DNA of 42,817 bases from a virus. Its lineage: Duplodnaviria > Heunggongvirae > Uroviricota > Caudoviricetes. The stretch covers positions 133,979-176,795 of the IMG/VR virus record IMGVR_UViG_3300021387_000091; one strand, written 5' to 3'. Below are positions 27,001-34,937 of this stretch, one piece after another; positions within the stretch are counted from its first letter, which is position 1; every line of letters begins with the position of its first letter. A program made the position numbers and the translations under genes. Under the pieces are notes generated by a model that was not told where the DNA came from, did not search any database, and saw nothing but the letters and a program-made list of their open reading frames with translations.

Positions 27001-30000
27001 AGAATCGAAAGGCTTGTCTTTGATGGAACCGAAAATTGGGGTAAGGCAAATGGCATCTTTAAACTTGTTGGCTGGTATGATGGTCATCCGCTCCCCTACT
27101 ATCATACTTATACAGACAACGTGGGCCAAGGTGGTGTTGGCATGTGTAGTGTTTTCGGCCAGTCATATTTTACAAGTGGTGCTGTGACTGGCACATATAG
27201 CCTGCTTATTGGTGAGGCTAACTGGGGCTTTGATATTTTGTCTACGAGAGTTCCGGGTGGCTCGGATACGACTGTTGACCAATTTAAAGCATGGCTTGCA
27301 TCTCTTTATGCGGCTGGAACTCCAATGACACTCGACTACGTCCTTGCCACCCCCATCGAGTACGAACTCGTAGAACCAATTCGCACAGATTATCCTGTAG
27401 ATAAATTAGGAACAGAAAGAATTATTTCTGACACAGTTCCTACTCCTCCATTCTGTGCTGATATTACTTATCATGAAGCAAATATTAAAGATATAGAGAT
27501 AGAAGGAATAACAGAATATCTAAAGAGAGAAGAACTTACTGATGAGTTAGATAAGTTAGATACTATTGAAGAAGGTGCTCAAGAAAATAAGATTGAACAT
27601 ATTACTCTTGGTGGAACTGAGCAAACTATTACTAATAAAACAGTAAATCTTCCTGCGTATCCTACTACTTTACCTGCAAGTGATGTATCAGCATGAGCTA
27701 AAGCAGCAACTAAGCCTAATTATAGTTTTAGTGAAATTGGAGGTACTGTAGCTGACTCTCAATTGCCAGATACTATTAGTTCTGATATTACTGGAACTGC
27801 TATGGGACTTAAAACTGAAAAGTTAACTGGTCAGGAGTTCGTCTACCGCATCAGCCCTGCGAGTATTAAAGCCAAGTCGCTTACCATCGACAGGATAAAG
27901 GGCAGGACTCTGGCGTGGAATCAATTGTGCCCTCTATTCTCTACTGTGGGTGAAGTGCCGCGTTGGAGTATAGAAACATTTATACGCGATGTATCTGCCG
28001 ATGGAAAAACTATAACGATAACTTTTACATCGGCCACAAACCCTCGATTCAGGCTATATCACGGACTATTGCCGACACACACTTTTTTTGTTTGTTATGA
28101 TTATCGTATAAACTCGTTGGCCTCAACGATTGGTTGGTCGGCTACTGGCGTTCTTCCACCACTTGTTCCCGAAGACTCACAAGTTGGTGTTTGGCAACAT
28201 AATAAAAAATTGATAAGTTATAACGACTCCGTCGACTACAGTGTGACATTCCCGGATATTGGTTCCAGTTATGAAGGGGCCCAAGTGTCCGTGCAAAATT
28301 ATAGGATAGTAGACCTTACTCTATTCTTTAACGGCAGTATTCCAGACGGATACACTGCTGAGGATTTTGAGAACGAGTATGGCTATTTGCTCCAAGATGC
28401 TGATGTTATATCCGGCACTCTCATCTCCAACGATGCTTCTGCGCTGGAGACCGTTGGGTTCAACCAGTGGGATGAGGAATGGAAAAGTGGTGGGTATGAT
28501 ATTTATGGAAACCCAGCACCTTCAAATGAATATATAAGAACAAAAAATAGAATTCCTATTGTCGCAGGCCAAACTTATTATATTCATTATAATGGAACGA
28601 TAGCGAGTGGTCAATTTGCAAGTTATATATTCGATTCCGCTGATAATTTACTCTTACGGGTCGAGGGCTATAATAAAACTGTTAACGCACCGGAAAATTC
28701 GTCCTATATGGTGTTTAACTATAAGGCAACAACCTACAACCACAACATCTGCATCAACCTCTCCGACCCTGCCAAGAACGGCACATACGAGCCGTACTGG
28801 AAGAGAACGATACACCTTGGACTGAACAACTTCAGGGTAAAGAGCCACAATATCTGGGACGAGGAATGGGAACTGGGATATTGGAACTCAACTGGCTGGC
28901 ACGCCAACAATAACTTCCTCGGTTCGAAGAATTATATCGCGGTATTCCCCTCTACTTCGTACTTCTTTAAGAGTCCCACAAATGTTAGGGAAATTGAATT
29001 TTGGGATGTTAACAAGAATTACATAGATAGGCTTACTTGGAATGAAGGAAGTGCAAATAGTGGCTTCACTACACCAGCGAATTGCCGTTATGTTACCTTT
29101 TATTTCGGAGGAACCTACGGCACCACTTACCAGAACGACATCTGCATCAACGTCTCTTCCTCCTTCAACGGACAGTATGAGCCGCACGGGATACTGACAT
29201 TCAATGGAGTGCCGAGTGCCGGAAGTGTCTATGACGAGATTGTCGGGAATAAGTATGTCAAGAGAGTGGGAAGTGTGGATTTGGGGAGTTTAAATTGGAC
29301 AAGAGCACAATATGGTGATATATATTGTTTTGTGTCAAGCATTTCTGGTAAGAAATTCGCGATAGAGAACATTCTTTCCGCAAAATATATTGTAGCCAAT
29401 AAACTTGCTTCTGAGTTATTAAAGGGTGAGAGTAGGGGAGACAATTCATCATCGGCAATCTATATTCGTGATGATGCCTACTCCGATGCAGCTTCCTTCA
29501 AAGCCGCCATGTCGGGCGTAATGCTGAACTACGAACTCGCCACCCCTGTAGAGTACGAGTTGGTGGAGCCTCTTGTGCCCACGGTGAAGGCCGGTACGAC
29601 CGAGGCAAGGATTAGTCCTAACGCTGACGGCCTGTCCGCTCCGTTCAGGGCAGACATAATTTATTCTGTTGCAGATTATATAGAATATGCTGATAGGGCT
29701 GGGACTCTTGTAAAAGGTGCTTCTGTTGATTTAACTGATATTACTGCAAATGGAGAGCTTTCTGGTAATGCTTTCAAAGTTATAGCTGAGCATATTGCTA
29801 AGTTAACATCAAGAGTTGAAGCATTAGAGAATGGAATTGGTGTTACTGATACTTTATCTTCTAATTCTGTAGATTCTGCTAATGGATACTATATAAATGG
29901 AGATAAAACTGTTATTATAGGTTCTGGAGCTCCTATAGTAGTTCCAGCATTTGCAGGACAGTTTTATATTAATACATCTGGTCCAGCATTGTATTATGCT

Positions 30001-30039
30001 GTTAATAATAGTGCAACAACAGATTGAAAACAAGCTTAA
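24010..30039 (+). CDS. 2009-aa tail fibre / receptor-binding protein with two duplicated modules
   Basis: Track ORFs 24151, 25591 and 27763 share one frame through TGA. Coiled-coil E..AR...D..L repeats, GKQLSTEDYTTAEKNKLAGI fibre motif, four WDEEW...ICIN domains. Confidence 0.82.
25572..29660 (+). repeat. Dispersed direct-repeat blocks between fibre module 1 (about 25575-27385) and module 2 (about 27830-29655)
   Basis: 26106-26160 vs 28428-28482 (55 nt, 1 mismatch); about 26414-26550 vs 28735-28872; about 26830-26918 vs 29125-29210; about 27337-27378 vs 29530-29570. Confidence 0.9.
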
Positions 30040-30042
30040 TAT

Positions 30043-31341
30043 ATGATTAAAAGTTATACAAATGAATCTGAGTGGGCTTCAGCAACGAAGCCCACTACAG
30101 AATCTACAGTTGGATTACTGTTAGATTCTAATACACCTGTTATTAATGGTGTTAATGTGTTGGTTACAATACCTAAATATGGAGATGCAGTAGTTCTGGA
30201 TGCAGATGGTAATATCCGTTTCATTGCTTTTGGAACTTTTAACAACGATACTTTCCCTAGTAGTTGGACTAAGGTAGGAGTAGTTTATCGTGTGAGAGGT
30301 AAGAAAGTTGATGTTATTTCATATACTTCTTTAGGTGGAATTAGATACTCTGCTATTTGAAGATTAAAAATTACAGGATATACTCTTGATTCTGCAGACC
30401 ATACTGCTGTATTAAGAAGTTATGATAACAATGGCGCTTATACTGATTTAAGTTTTACTTATAACGCTGCTTCTCCTTCTGATTTGATAAGTCAGTTTAA
30501 TACATGAGCAGAAACGTCTGGAAATGATCCAAATAACAGAGGTTTCTATATGTATTTAGATGGTTCTGGTGTAGTGCAGTTCTGTGAAGCTAATTATAAT
30601 CACTGGAGGCAACATTCAGATGGATGGGTAAGTGGTTTAACTTCTTCTCCAAGTGTTGCACAAGAAATTCCCAATATTACTTGGAATCCTGATATGGATG
30701 GTATTTCTCGTATTTACAATACTGTTAATATTGGTGCTGTTAAACGTTGAGGTGGTAGAACTTTAAGTTCTGTAGAAGTAATTACTGCTAATAATACTCC
30801 TATTTCAAAGGCCTCTTTTGAAAGCGAATACGGTATTAATTATCAAAATGCTTATGGAACTTATGATAATTATCTTGAACATAACTGTGCAAAGATTCCT
30901 GTAAATAAAGGCGTATGTTCGTGAACAAATGTTGGACATGAATATACTTACGCTTTAGCTGATTTAACTTATAAAACTAAAGCTGGAGAAACAGCTTATA
31001 TGTATAATGCTCCTCATCAAGTATCTACTTTTGGTTTTTCTACAAATAGTGATCTTGCTGCTGGGAAATGATATATTCCAGATGTAGAGGAAATGATCGT
31101 ATTAATGAGACCGATTACAGTAGGAAACAGCGGAATTAGTACAGTGGATCAGTATGATAAAGTAAACCAGACCATTTATGCTATGGGAGGAAATACTATA
31201 AGTACCAACGCCAGGCGTTGGTGTAGTTGTAGGTACGGTAGCGACGATGTGTGGGCTTGTGACTCCGGTGCTTATTTGTACAACAGCGGTTTCTACGGGA
31301 CATTGGCTGTTGTTCCTGTGTGCCGCCTCCGTATTGCTTAG
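30043..31341 (+). CDS. DGR target protein (432 aa) with C-terminal C-type-lectin-fold variable region
   Basis: Three track ORFs share one frame through TGA. KWYIPDVEEM motif followed by RRWCSCRYGSDDVW...VVPV, typical of DGR CLec/DUF1566-like C-termini. Confidence 0.8.
31205..31341 (+). other. DGR variable region (VR) and putative IMH
   Basis: Locally GC-rich run of NNY codons (tac ggt agc gac gat ... gct tgt gac tcc ggt gct tat ... tac aac agc ggt ttc tac), as expected from adenine mutagenesis of AAY template codons. No matching TR seen in the window. Confidence 0.7.
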
Positions 31342-31350
31342 ACGATAATC

Positions 31351-32004
31351 TTGTCTGGCCGCGTTTTGAGCGGCCAGACTATTCATCAAAAACTTATAAA
31401 TTATAATTTATCAGATAAAAAGTACAAAATTTCAGCACTTGGAACAAAGCCAAAACTAATAAAGAAGACATTAGATAAAACAGATATAAAACCGGTATTA
31501 GAAGATTTATTTGAGTTTGTAAGAGACATTTTAAAGTTAATGGGAAAATATGATAGAAGCACAACAGGCGCTTCATTATATAAATCTTTATTACAAGCGG
31601 AAAAGCATTTTGCTTTGTCATATTATCACGTAGGAATTACAGAAAAGAAATATGAAGAAGCGTATGATTTAGTTTGTGAATTAGAAACAATTAAATTTCT
31701 TTTAGAACAAATATTTAGATTAAATATGATTCATGATTCTAAACAACACGTTGAAGGATTTAGAAATAGAACATATTTAATAATAGCAGATATGCAAGAA
31801 CAGATTGATAAATGATATAATTGAATAGTTGCTGAATTGCAACAGTCTATGAACTCATATTTCGGAATGATGAAACGTCGTTCAGAGAAGAAAGCTATTT
31901 ATAGGATGATTTTTAGTTATATAAACAAAGAATGATGACATTATGTGAAGTTTAATAAAAATCGGTTATGTATTCAAGTAAGAAAACAATATAAAGAGTT
32001 TTAG
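31351..32004 (+). CDS. avd: Avd-like four-helix protein fused in frame (via TGA=Trp) to a DGR reverse transcriptase C-terminal remnant; start codon uncertain
   Basis: Helical Avd-like body (VLEDLFEFVRDILKLMGKY...LVCELETIKFLL...QIDKWYNW), then LQQSMNSYFGMMK...INKEWWHYV, resembling the Bacteroidota DGR-RT C-terminus; ends at TAG 32004. Confidence 0.65.
31353..31379 (+). promoter_or_regulatory. GC-rich hairpin/cruciform downstream of VR (DGR retrohoming cis element)
   Basis: Perfect 10-bp stem gtctggccgc / gcggccagac with a 7-nt loop, starting 12 nt after the target stop. Confidence 0.75.
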
Positions 32005-32032
32005 TAACATATTGCTAAAATTTTAAATTTAT

Positions 32033-32072
32033 AAATCCCTGTGACTCAATGAGTTACGGGGATTTTTGTTTT
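32033..32072 (+). terminator. Intrinsic terminator
   Basis: 15-bp stem aaatccctgtgactc / gagttacggggattt with two G.U pairs, followed by a T-rich tract. Confidence 0.85.
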
Positions 32073-32084
32073 ATATTAGCATCG

Positions 32085-32117
32085 TTAGGTTTCAGGTCGT
32101 TTATGTATTAACTTTGC
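32085..32117 (+). promoter_or_regulatory. Bacteroidota-type promoter (TTAG-N20-TAACTTTGC) heading the six-gene cassette
   Basis: -7 element TAnnTTTG at 32109; one-mismatch -33 element at the same 20-nt spacing as the other promoters. Confidence 0.6.
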
Positions 32118-32171
32118 ATCGTTGATCAACAAAAGTATAGTTTTTAGTTTAATTTTTAAAAGTAAAATAAA

Positions 32172-33047
32172 ATGGCAGAAGAAAAAACTTATGTATTTGG
32201 CAATGATGCCAATTCTCTTCCACTTGCTTACGCTCTTAACGGAAACGGATGGAATAATGGTGGCCTTGGTGGCTGAGGCGGCGGTATTGTTGGATTCCTT
32301 CTTGGCTTAGCTTTTGGCGGCTTTGGTGGAGGTTTCGGTGGTTTTGGTAACGGTTTTGGCGGTGGAGTTGGCAATTTAGTTAACTCTGATAGTAACCGCG
32401 ATGTTGTTCTCCAAGCTATTAATGGTACAGATGCAGATGTTCGTCAATTAGCTTCTACACTTGGAATGAATTATGAAACAATTAGTGCTGGTATTACTGA
32501 TGCACGTATTGCTCTTCAGAATGTAGGTTCTCAGGTTGGACTTTCTAGCTTACAAGTTCAAAACGCTATTCTATCTGGCGACGCTTCTATTGTTTCTAAA
32601 CTCCAGGAGTGTTGCTGCGAGAATCGCCTTTTAACAACCGAACAGGGTTATCAGGCTCAGATTCGTACTATCGAGCAAACTAATCAGCTTGGTTCTCAAG
32701 CAGATCGTAATACTGCTGCTCTTACTAGTGCAATTAATGCTTTCCACGATGACATGACTCGTGAATTCTGTGAAGTTCGTGAGCGTGAAATGCAAGATAA
32801 GATTAGCACTCTTACTGCTGCTAATGCTGCTCTTAAGAGTCAAATTGATAATGCTAACCAAACCGCTGCTGTTGCTGCTATGCTTGCTCCTATCCAGAAA
32901 GAAGTTTCTGAGATTAAAGCTGCACAGCCTGCAACCACAACAGTTACTTATCCTCAATTAACAGCTATCCCTTCTTATATGCTTTATGGAAATGGTAGCT
33001 ATTACGGATATCCTTTTTATAACGGAAATGGCTCAATCTGGGCTTAA
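32172..33047 (+). CDS. Gly-rich, membrane-segment and coiled-coil protein with a CCC motif (291 aa)
   Basis: ATG 32172 is in frame with track ORF 32466 via one TGA. GGIVGFLLGLAF hydrophobic segment, GGFGGGFGGF repeats, LQECCCENRL. Confidence 0.8.
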
Positions 33048-34102: not shown

Positions 34103-34512
34103 TGAGATTAGATGCGAGAGATAGTTTTCCTTCTGGAATGGAAGAGTACTTGTCTATTTATGGATGGCATTTTAGCAAAAAGATGTGCGAATGAGCTACA
34201 TCAAATATGTATAAAGTAGATGCCACTGGTGCAAAGAATTATATTACACCAATGAAAAAAGAAGTAGTAGACGAGCTTTTGAAAAGATATAATATTAAAT
34301 TGGAGAATAAAGTATCCTATGATTATGTCTTTGCTGCAAACATGTGTTTTGCTGATTATATGGGTTCTTCCATAGAAGATGAAAGACATGTTGCACTATT
34401 TGTCAAGGATTACGTAGATGATGAAGATGGATATTCGGAATTACCGTTTACAAGATTCTTTGCAGATTGTATAGGTTCTGGAACTCCAATTAATTGGGAG
34501 GATATGATATAA
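34102..34512 (+). CDS. Hypothetical protein, cassette gene 5 (YGWHFSKKMCEW motif)
   Basis: ATG 34102 is in frame with track ORF 34207 via one TGA. Confidence 0.75.
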
Positions 34513-34937
34513 TGATAAAACAGAACATTTACCTTGATGATTGAGATTGATATGTTACTGTATTTTATGCAGTAGATACCTATTATTTAGATGATATTTT
34601 AGGAGAATTAGAAGAGATTGGATGTTCTGGCAGTAAATTAAATGATATTGAAGTCAGTTTAGCAACAGAACAGTATAATATAGGATTAACATATTCAAAC
34701 TTAAAAGGTAGATGTTCTGTTGTTGTTATCGGATTAACTTCATCTCCTGCAGAATTTCAAAATACATTCGACCATGAGAAAGGGCATTTAGCAATGCATA
34801 TTTGTGAAACAGATAACATTGACCCGTTTTCGGAAGAATTTCAATATTTAACCGGAGAAATAGGTCAAGCAATGTTTCCAGTTGCTAAAAATTTCCTTTG
34901 TGAGCATTGTCGAATTAAATTACAAGGTGGGGAATAA
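34512..34937 (+). CDS. 141-aa protein with HExxH motif (putative Zn metalloprotease), cassette gene 6
   Basis: Missing from the track because of TGA at codons 11 and 13 (DDWDWYV); contains FDHEKGHLAMH; ends at TAA. Confidence 0.72.

Follow-up and report, generated by a model that had tools for sequence, protein, structure and literature searches.

An in-frame Avd::RT-tail reading frame as the probable scar of a DGR lost by deletion in a TGA-recoded phage

Between positions 31351 and 32004 of the 42,817-nucleotide stretch of phage DNA analysed here (the window), a reading frame that starts out as an Avd-like protein continues directly into a segment resembling the end of the reverse transcriptase (RT) of a diversity-generating retroelement (DGR), a system for targeted mutation. 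This arrangement raises the question of whether the locus is the remains of a DGR that was switched off by deletion, or whether it encodes a chimeric protein, part Avd and part RT thumb, that has been retained and acts on other DGRs in trans. A reading of the sequence alone had put forward both. Our analysis indicates that the locus is the scar of a canonical DGR lost by one deletion between short repeats, and that the fused ORF is most likely a decaying, non-functional relic; we give this reading a probability of about 0.85.

The genetic code of the phage and the intact DGRs of its relatives

The window comes from a large phage of the gut or rumen type with a TGA-recoded genome of ~177 kb (Table 1). 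In the standard code the ORFs of the window are fragmented; once TGA is read as Trp, tail genes of 1514, 2580 and 2009 aa appear as open frames. This reading is justified by the exchange of TGG and TGA at both Trp positions of the conserved Avd motif KWYxW (TGG in relatives such as L009, L015 and L022, TGA in others), together with the presence in the genome of a tRNA with the anticodon TCA, which is likely to be the opal suppressor behind the recoding. The RT genes of the relatives contain six to nine Trp codons written TGA. Translated with table 4, the frame 31351-32004 is open over 217 codons with four in-frame TGA, and reads ...QIDKWYNW-IVAELQQ-SMNSYFGMMK...EWWHYVKF...KQYKEF up to its stop, just as the sequence-only reading had described it. 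With table 11 the same frame ends at a stop at 31813-31815.

Relatives were found by searching a set of 5.8 billion proteins with the fused ORF. This search returned eight clusters of proteins of 139-158 aa, which matched only the first 64-71% of the fused ORF, and a metagenome scan for relatives added only L022. Scans of IMG/VR, whether started from the single protein, from the Avd alignment or from the target protein, yielded one related contig only, and an IMG/VR search for the exact junction pattern, in a set that possibly does not include the window's own record, gave no match. No match to window 30000-32200 was found among GenBank phages with blastn.

Intact cassettes with the order target-hairpin-Avd-TR-RT are present in L011, L012, L009/L010, L003-L006 and L015-L018. 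In these relatives a target protein of 432 aa is followed by an Avd of 154-158 aa, a spacer of ~215-255 nt that holds a copy of the target 3' end (the TR), and an RT of 383-388 aa. The RTs match PF00078 RVT_1 with E-values of about 1e-13 to 1e-16 (1.1e-13 for L012), and in the PDB the L012 RT is matched best by Bordetella bRT (8ub7, E 1.2e-11). Mismatches between TR and VR fall almost exclusively at TR adenines (19/19 in L012, 18/19 in L010 and 20/21 in L003), so that the intact relatives are bona fide DGRs and apparently active. They also share a gene of 291-294 aa downstream of the RT, homologous to window 32172-33047. The IMG/VR relatives that are closest by this downstream gene (L023-L029 and L045, 63-89% identical) have no target, Avd or RT within the 4.5 kb upstream of it, where unrelated genes are found instead. 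The DGR is thus an accessory module in a (hyper)variable region behind the tail-fibre genes.

One short contig (L014, ENA k141_902755, 602 nt) carries, at L014:500-602, an Avd allele with an in-frame TAG at the Tyr of KWYNW. The TAG may reflect another inactivating lesion or, the contig being short, an error of sequencing; P0019, which belongs to the same cluster, is intact.

The deletion and what remains of the cassette

Table 1. Features of the DGR remnant and its genomic setting (window coordinates unless stated otherwise).
Feature	Coordinates	Strand	Description
Window	last 42.8 kb of 176,795-bp virus record		record with direct terminal repeats, rated complete genome
tRNA, anticodon TCA	G000:C1:80187-80280 (outside window)	minus	ARAGORN: tRNA-SeC; among 18 phage tRNAs
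DGR target gene	30043-31341	+	432 aa, five TGA=Trp codons; directly after 2009-aa tail-fibre gene
VR with conserved 3' IMH-like end	31206-31334	+	gap-free alignment to TRs of L012, L011 and L010
Post-VR hairpin	31353-31379	+	perfect 10-bp GC-rich stem, 7-nt loop, just after target stop
Avd-derived part of fusion	31396-31845	+	150 codons; conserved core complete through KWYNW-IVAELQQ
ATA replacing Avd start codon	31396-31398	+	ATG in 11/11 relatives compared
Deletion junction	31829-31845		17-nt imperfect microhomology, 15/17 identical; exact hexamer CAACAG at 31840-31845
RT gene remnant	31846-32004	+	last 52 codons (end of thumb/C-terminal tail) and TAG stop
Intrinsic terminator of former RT gene	32033 to about 32065-32075	+	15-pair stem followed by T-run

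The second half of the fused frame derives from an RT gene. It is 97.5% identical at the nucleotide level to L012 2000-2158, and when the whole genome was searched by tblastn with the L012 RT the sole match was to window 31828-32001, with 91% aa identity to residues 327-384 (E 1.6e-26). The proposal that this segment is the thumb or C-terminal end of a DGR RT, which hinged on RT homology being present there, is thereby borne out. The RVT_1 domain, which spans residues 64-294 of the intact L012 RT, is wholly absent from the window, and the entire 176,795-bp record contains no RVT_1 and no RT match beyond the 58-aa tail. Likewise, the genome contains no second copy of the VR, the TRs of the relatives matching only the VR itself. 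The earlier observation that neither a TR nor an RT catalytic region lies between the two halves therefore extends to the whole record: both the catalytic domain of a functional DGR (RVT_1, with its YxDD-type motif) and a TR with adenine-specific differences, as seen in the intact relatives, are missing.

The first part of the fused ORF is an Avd-like accessory gene of a DGR. It has 92% nucleotide identity (488/529) to the Avd region of L011, and its counterparts lie between the target and the TR-RT in all intact relatives. An AlphaFold model predicts a four-helix bundle over residues 28-158 (helices 28-47, 51-77, 83-108 and 116-158), with pLDDT values of 74-94 in the core. The top Foldseek matches of this model were 2gsc, 2rld and Bordetella Avd (4dwl/8ubb), with a probability of 1.0 and TM(target) of 0.58-0.76, and all of its best 11 matches were Avd-family structures, such that the modelled fold resembles that of solved Avd proteins. 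At the sequence level neither the window protein nor the L012 Avd matched the PF05635 HMM at E-values up to 10, searches of NCBIfam and PHROGs gave no Avd match, and neither did a profile built from the Avd alignment (A1) against PDB sequences. The fused ORF as a whole gave nothing significant in Pfam, NCBIfam or PHROGs, the single hint being a match of the tail to phrog_1423 ('reverse transcriptase', E 0.12). The avd genes are known to be very poorly conserved (PMC5758913). The pI of the Avd part is 7.9, within the 7.1-8.7 of the relatives' Avd proteins, compared with 9.5 ± 0.7 for typical Avd (PMC5758913).

Alignment with L011 by blastn resolves the locus into two collinear blocks, window 31321-31849 corresponding to L011 1-529 (92%) and window 31835-32239 to L011 1772-2174, with 1257 nt (~1.26 kb) missing from the window between them. 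Gone with this segment are the last seven codons of Avd, the TR, and codons 1-332 of the RT gene, among them all those for the catalytic domain. What remains is a fusion of Avd codons 1-150 to RT codons 333-384, with 202 codons intact from the Avd start position. In L012 the two sequences that meet at the junction are TTGCTGAATTGCAACAG on the Avd side and TTGCTAAATTTCAACAG on the RT side, identical at 15 of 17 positions, and by comparison with L012 the window sequence switches from the Avd version to the RT version after CAACAG. The locus is thus orthologous to intact DGRs and carries a lesion that can be mapped; the alignment that had been suggested for locating the junction and any microhomology found both. 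Downstream of the fusion the stem and T-run at 32033-32065 (fold z -6.3) form a strong intrinsic terminator, the same element as the one found after the RT stop in L011 and L009. An Rfam search of window 29500-33000 gave only sub-threshold matches, on the terminator. The prediction that a single deletion took out TR and RT core and left frame and terminator in place is therefore supported.

We propose that the ancestor carried a canonical target-hairpin-avd-TR-RT cassette from which the ~1.26-kb segment was deleted. The deletion end-points lie in a pair of 17-nt near-repeats, of which one belongs to the variable 3' tail of avd and its partner to the stretch of the RT gene that codes for the thumb. 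The most likely mechanism would be recombination mediated by microhomology, or slippage during replication. Since the codon phase of the two repeats is the same (..AELQQ / ..KFQQ), the product is an in-frame Avd::RT-tail ORF, which still ends at the old RT stop and terminator; retention of the frame is a by-product of this phase. The opposite polarity, with an insertion of the TR and RT in the relatives in place of a deletion in the window, was considered and rejected, since the tail matches the 3' end of the RT ORF in frame, with 97.5% nucleotide identity, and the window VR bears a history of adenine mutagenesis.

Similarity to the two nearest relatives changes along the locus. Window 31720-32004, which holds the final third of Avd together with the RT tail, is ~97% identical to L012, whereas the flanks 31420-31719 (earlier Avd sequence) and 32005-32171 (beyond the RT stop) are closer to L011, and the pre-deletion ancestor was therefore already mosaic. 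This pattern of sequence similarity suggests that the DGR core was exchanged as a module between related phages before the deletion took place.

That the junction is an assembly collapse between short repeats, with an intact DGR in the real phage, is very unlikely. Although the junction sits in a 17-nt near-repeat, the exact shared stretch in the nearest intact relative is 6 nt, far below assembler k-mers. The exact fused protein is found on three contigs, two of which, one assembled by SPAdes (81x coverage) and one from Logan (run SRR873601), have the same junction and are 100% identical across it. The record is a complete genome with terminal repeats, the independent change of ATG to ATA at the Avd start fits a dead locus, and analogous deletions occur in relatives from many samples (see below).

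Upstream of the fusion the C-terminal VR, its conserved 3' end and the GC hairpin that follows are all still present, as expected of a DGR remnant. The target orthologues are 432 aa long and lie upstream of Avd in all relatives; in their alignment (A3) the variable columns cluster at the C-terminus, the only hypervariable part. No match to the target protein was found in Pfam, PHROG or NCBIfam, and an AlphaFold prediction with eight orthologues gave a mean pLDDT of 35.5, unusable as fold evidence. The window VR differs from the relatives' TRs at ~40 positions, of which 23 (L012), 23 (L011) and 22 (L010) are TR adenines, and it is now an orphan because no TR is left in the genome. DGR VRs are typically followed by a GC hairpin of the kind seen here. 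The hairpin has a DNA folding energy of -13.4 kcal/mol (z -6.1) and shows three compensatory pair changes, with GTCTGGCCGC/GCGGCCAGAC in the window and GCTTAGCCGC/GCGGCTAAGC in L003, L005 and L007. By sequence comparison these changes give good support to its probable role as a functional DGR target-recognition element. Across the lineages compared, which include L003, L005, L007 and L010, the structure of the hairpin is kept.

With the TR and RT gone the cassette cannot make mutagenic cDNA, and the receptor-binding tip of the target would therefore be frozen at its last variant. The alignment to intact DGRs thus agrees with the earlier claim that the deletion switched the DGR off, and the 'host-range lock-in' that was derived from this loss is plausible.

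Deletions in related phages and the fate of the fused ORF

Further lesions came from members of the protein clusters and were mapped on the intact cassette of L005. A different in-frame Avd::RT-tail fusion is present in L007 and L008, with its junction at L005 728|1917 in a 3-nt microhomology, where Avd ...KWYQWI is joined to RT YRLLCK.... A second, independent fusion of this type answers the question of recurrence that the sequence-only reading had raised. In L068-L071 and at least four more contigs the 728|1917 junction is combined with an 8-nt deletion between tandem TATCATAT repeats; this later form of the L007-type fusion, seen in at least eight contigs from several runs, has its frame broken into pieces of 82 and 139 aa. 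L072 has a junction at 537|2107 that is out of frame, and in L073 a junction at 666|4894, with a 9-nt exact microhomology, joins Avd codon ~125 to an unrelated gene five genes downstream. These other deletion alleles cut Avd at codons ~84 and ~125. Altogether the cassette has undergone at least four independent deletions in one small clade, and the decay of one of the resulting fusions can be seen directly.

Three of the four alleles are in frame, and the probability of at least three in-frame alleles among four is ~0.11. The deletion alleles were found via their Avd similarity, which biases the sample towards retained Avd. The clustering of breakpoints at the end of Avd in two alleles was considered as a sign of selection and rejected, given this mode of ascertainment and the different breakpoints of the other alleles.

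The L073 deletion (L073:4745-4760, Logan SRR3588547) spans 4.2 kb and runs in frame into a homologue of window ORF 34494-34937. Lost with it are the RT and all genes of the downstream set, the 291-aa gene among them. The allele is represented by a single assembly; if it is real, the downstream cassette is dispensable.

L007 (L007:7813-7930) and L068-L071 (L068-L071:5813-5930) have the same junction and different VRs; some of the differences are at TR adenines and others at non-adenine positions. Recombination either changed the target gene once the deletion was in place or spread the deletion allele itself.

The VRs also bear on whether the target could still be diversified in trans, a related phage or prophage in the same host supplying the RT, Avd and a matching TR. 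This we regard as very unlikely. The window has kept an intact VR with its conserved 3' end and an intact hairpin, a passage of PMC5758913 cites experiments with BPP-1 in which avd, TR and brt acted in trans, and the VRs of L007 and L068-L071, despite the shared junction, differ largely at TR-adenine positions. However, the L068-type VR differs at many non-adenine positions as well, which recombination of the target explains better than retrohoming does, and L068-L071, which come from four runs, have VRs that vary at a single base, the uniformity that a dead DGR should show. Similarly, the VR is the same (100% identity) in two assemblies of the window lineage, and between the window VR and the nearest known TRs there are 17 mismatches at non-adenine positions.

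As to the fused ORF itself, the missing ATG start that the sequence-only reading had remarked on proves to be a substitution of the Avd start codon (Table 1). The surrounding sequence is 96% identical to the corresponding flank of L011, which has ATG. Since ATG is now ATA, the fused ORF has most likely begun to decay, as had been suspected. Other possible starts are the ATA itself or the upstream TTG codons at 31351 and 31366, and low-level translation might begin at any of these. The dN/dS values (0.15 for Avd against L011, and 0.18 for the tail against L012, with only four differences) mostly record the time before the deletion, the changes that arose after it being too few, and cannot show relaxation.

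The alternative is that the Avd::RT-tail chimera is a retained functional protein, an Avd pentamer with basic thumb tails that would bind the DGR RNA or the RT of co-infecting relatives and so modulate or block their retrohoming, or an Avd with a role independent of DGRs. The frame is open through the junction, and two independent in-frame fusions, in the window and in L007, keep the whole conserved Avd core with all its conserved columns, which could be a hint of selection. The tail is also very basic (pI 10.2), the Bordetella thumb contacts DGR RNA elements (10.1101/2023.10.23.563531), and avd, TR and brt can act in trans, according to the same passage of PMC5758913. We nevertheless consider a functional chimera quite unlikely. 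Neither a usable start codon nor a frame kept in descendants is found: the window has lost its ATG, and the sister fusion of the L007 type is frameshifted in at least eight contigs. Where other alleles delete the cassette they break Avd elsewhere, within its coding region. The RT-derived portion amounts to just 52 of ~384 residues and is modelled with a pLDDT of only 51-67. In the Bordetella ribonucleoprotein Avd contacts the N-terminal extension of the RT, and the thumb contacts RNA (10.1101/2023.10.23.563531), so that there is no structural reason for a thumb stub to dock on Avd. The suggestion of a retained Avd-thumb chimera acting in trans is therefore not supported by these data.

A more specific version, slightly less probable still, is that the window and L007 fusions are expressed and serve as subunits with a dominant-negative or regulatory effect, either by poisoning Avd pentamers or by sequestering DGR RNA from co-infecting relatives. 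If this were true, phages without a DGR of their own could freeze the host range of their competitors, or stabilise their own after recombination. Our preferred reading remains that of a scar whose ORF is decaying.

Comparison with known DGRs

Read as a scar, the locus is a base-resolved natural example of a phage switching off the targeted hypermutation of its receptor-binding protein. The clade in which at least four independent lesions have accumulated is one of TGA-recoded phages of ~170 kb, and this number suggests that DGRs are often lost, and that their loss may be favoured after a good receptor-binding variant has become fixed. The locus also holds a warning for annotation. With the standard code it yields a normal-looking avd of 154 aa, and with code 4 a novel protein of 212-217 aa; neither is correct.

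The closest well-characterised system is the DGR of Bordetella phage BPP-1 (mtd-VR, avd, TR, brt), architecture B1 of Wu et al. 2018 (PMC5758913), whose gene order the intact relatives share. They resemble it further in their C-terminal VR, the GC hairpin after the VR and the adenine-specific differences between TR and VR, and bRT is the nearest to their RT among solved structures (8ub7, E 1.2e-11). The Avd part of the window is predicted to have the same four-helix-bundle fold as Avd. In contrast to BPP-1, the window has no TR and no RT residues 1-332, its avd is fused to the RT tail and the element cannot function; its Avd is too divergent to be matched by PF05635 and, at pI 7.1-8.7, less basic than typical Avd (9.5 ± 0.7, PMC5758913), and its genes use TGA as Trp. 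With the Avd/23S rRNA-intervening-sequence family (PF05635; 4dwl, 2gsc, 2rld) the window protein shares a predicted four-helix bundle of ~110-120 residues. It differs from this family in having no sequence-level match to Pfam, NCBIfam or PHROGs nor, with a profile, to PDB sequences, and in its additional N-terminal ~25 residues (of low model confidence) and 52-residue RT-derived tail.

In earlier surveys inactivated or incomplete DGRs were very common. Wu et al. 2018 (PMC5758913) discarded more than half of their candidate DGRs because these were truncated or inactivated, and in a study of crAss-like genus I phages incomplete cassettes were present in 66 of 91 crAss-like genomes (Morozova et al. 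2020, PMC7290462). No report of an Avd::RT-tail fusion was found in either survey, and PMC5758913 uses neither 'fused' nor 'fusion'. As in these surveyed elements (PMC5758913, PMC7290462), essential parts of the window cassette have been lost and the target gene and some other elements remain. Unlike them, its lesion is mapped to the base against intact relatives, the deletion left behind an Avd::RT-tail ORF that is in frame, and independent deletions, at least four of them, fall within one small clade. DGR decay is well documented, and the window is a clean example of an inactivated DGR that involves no new mechanism.
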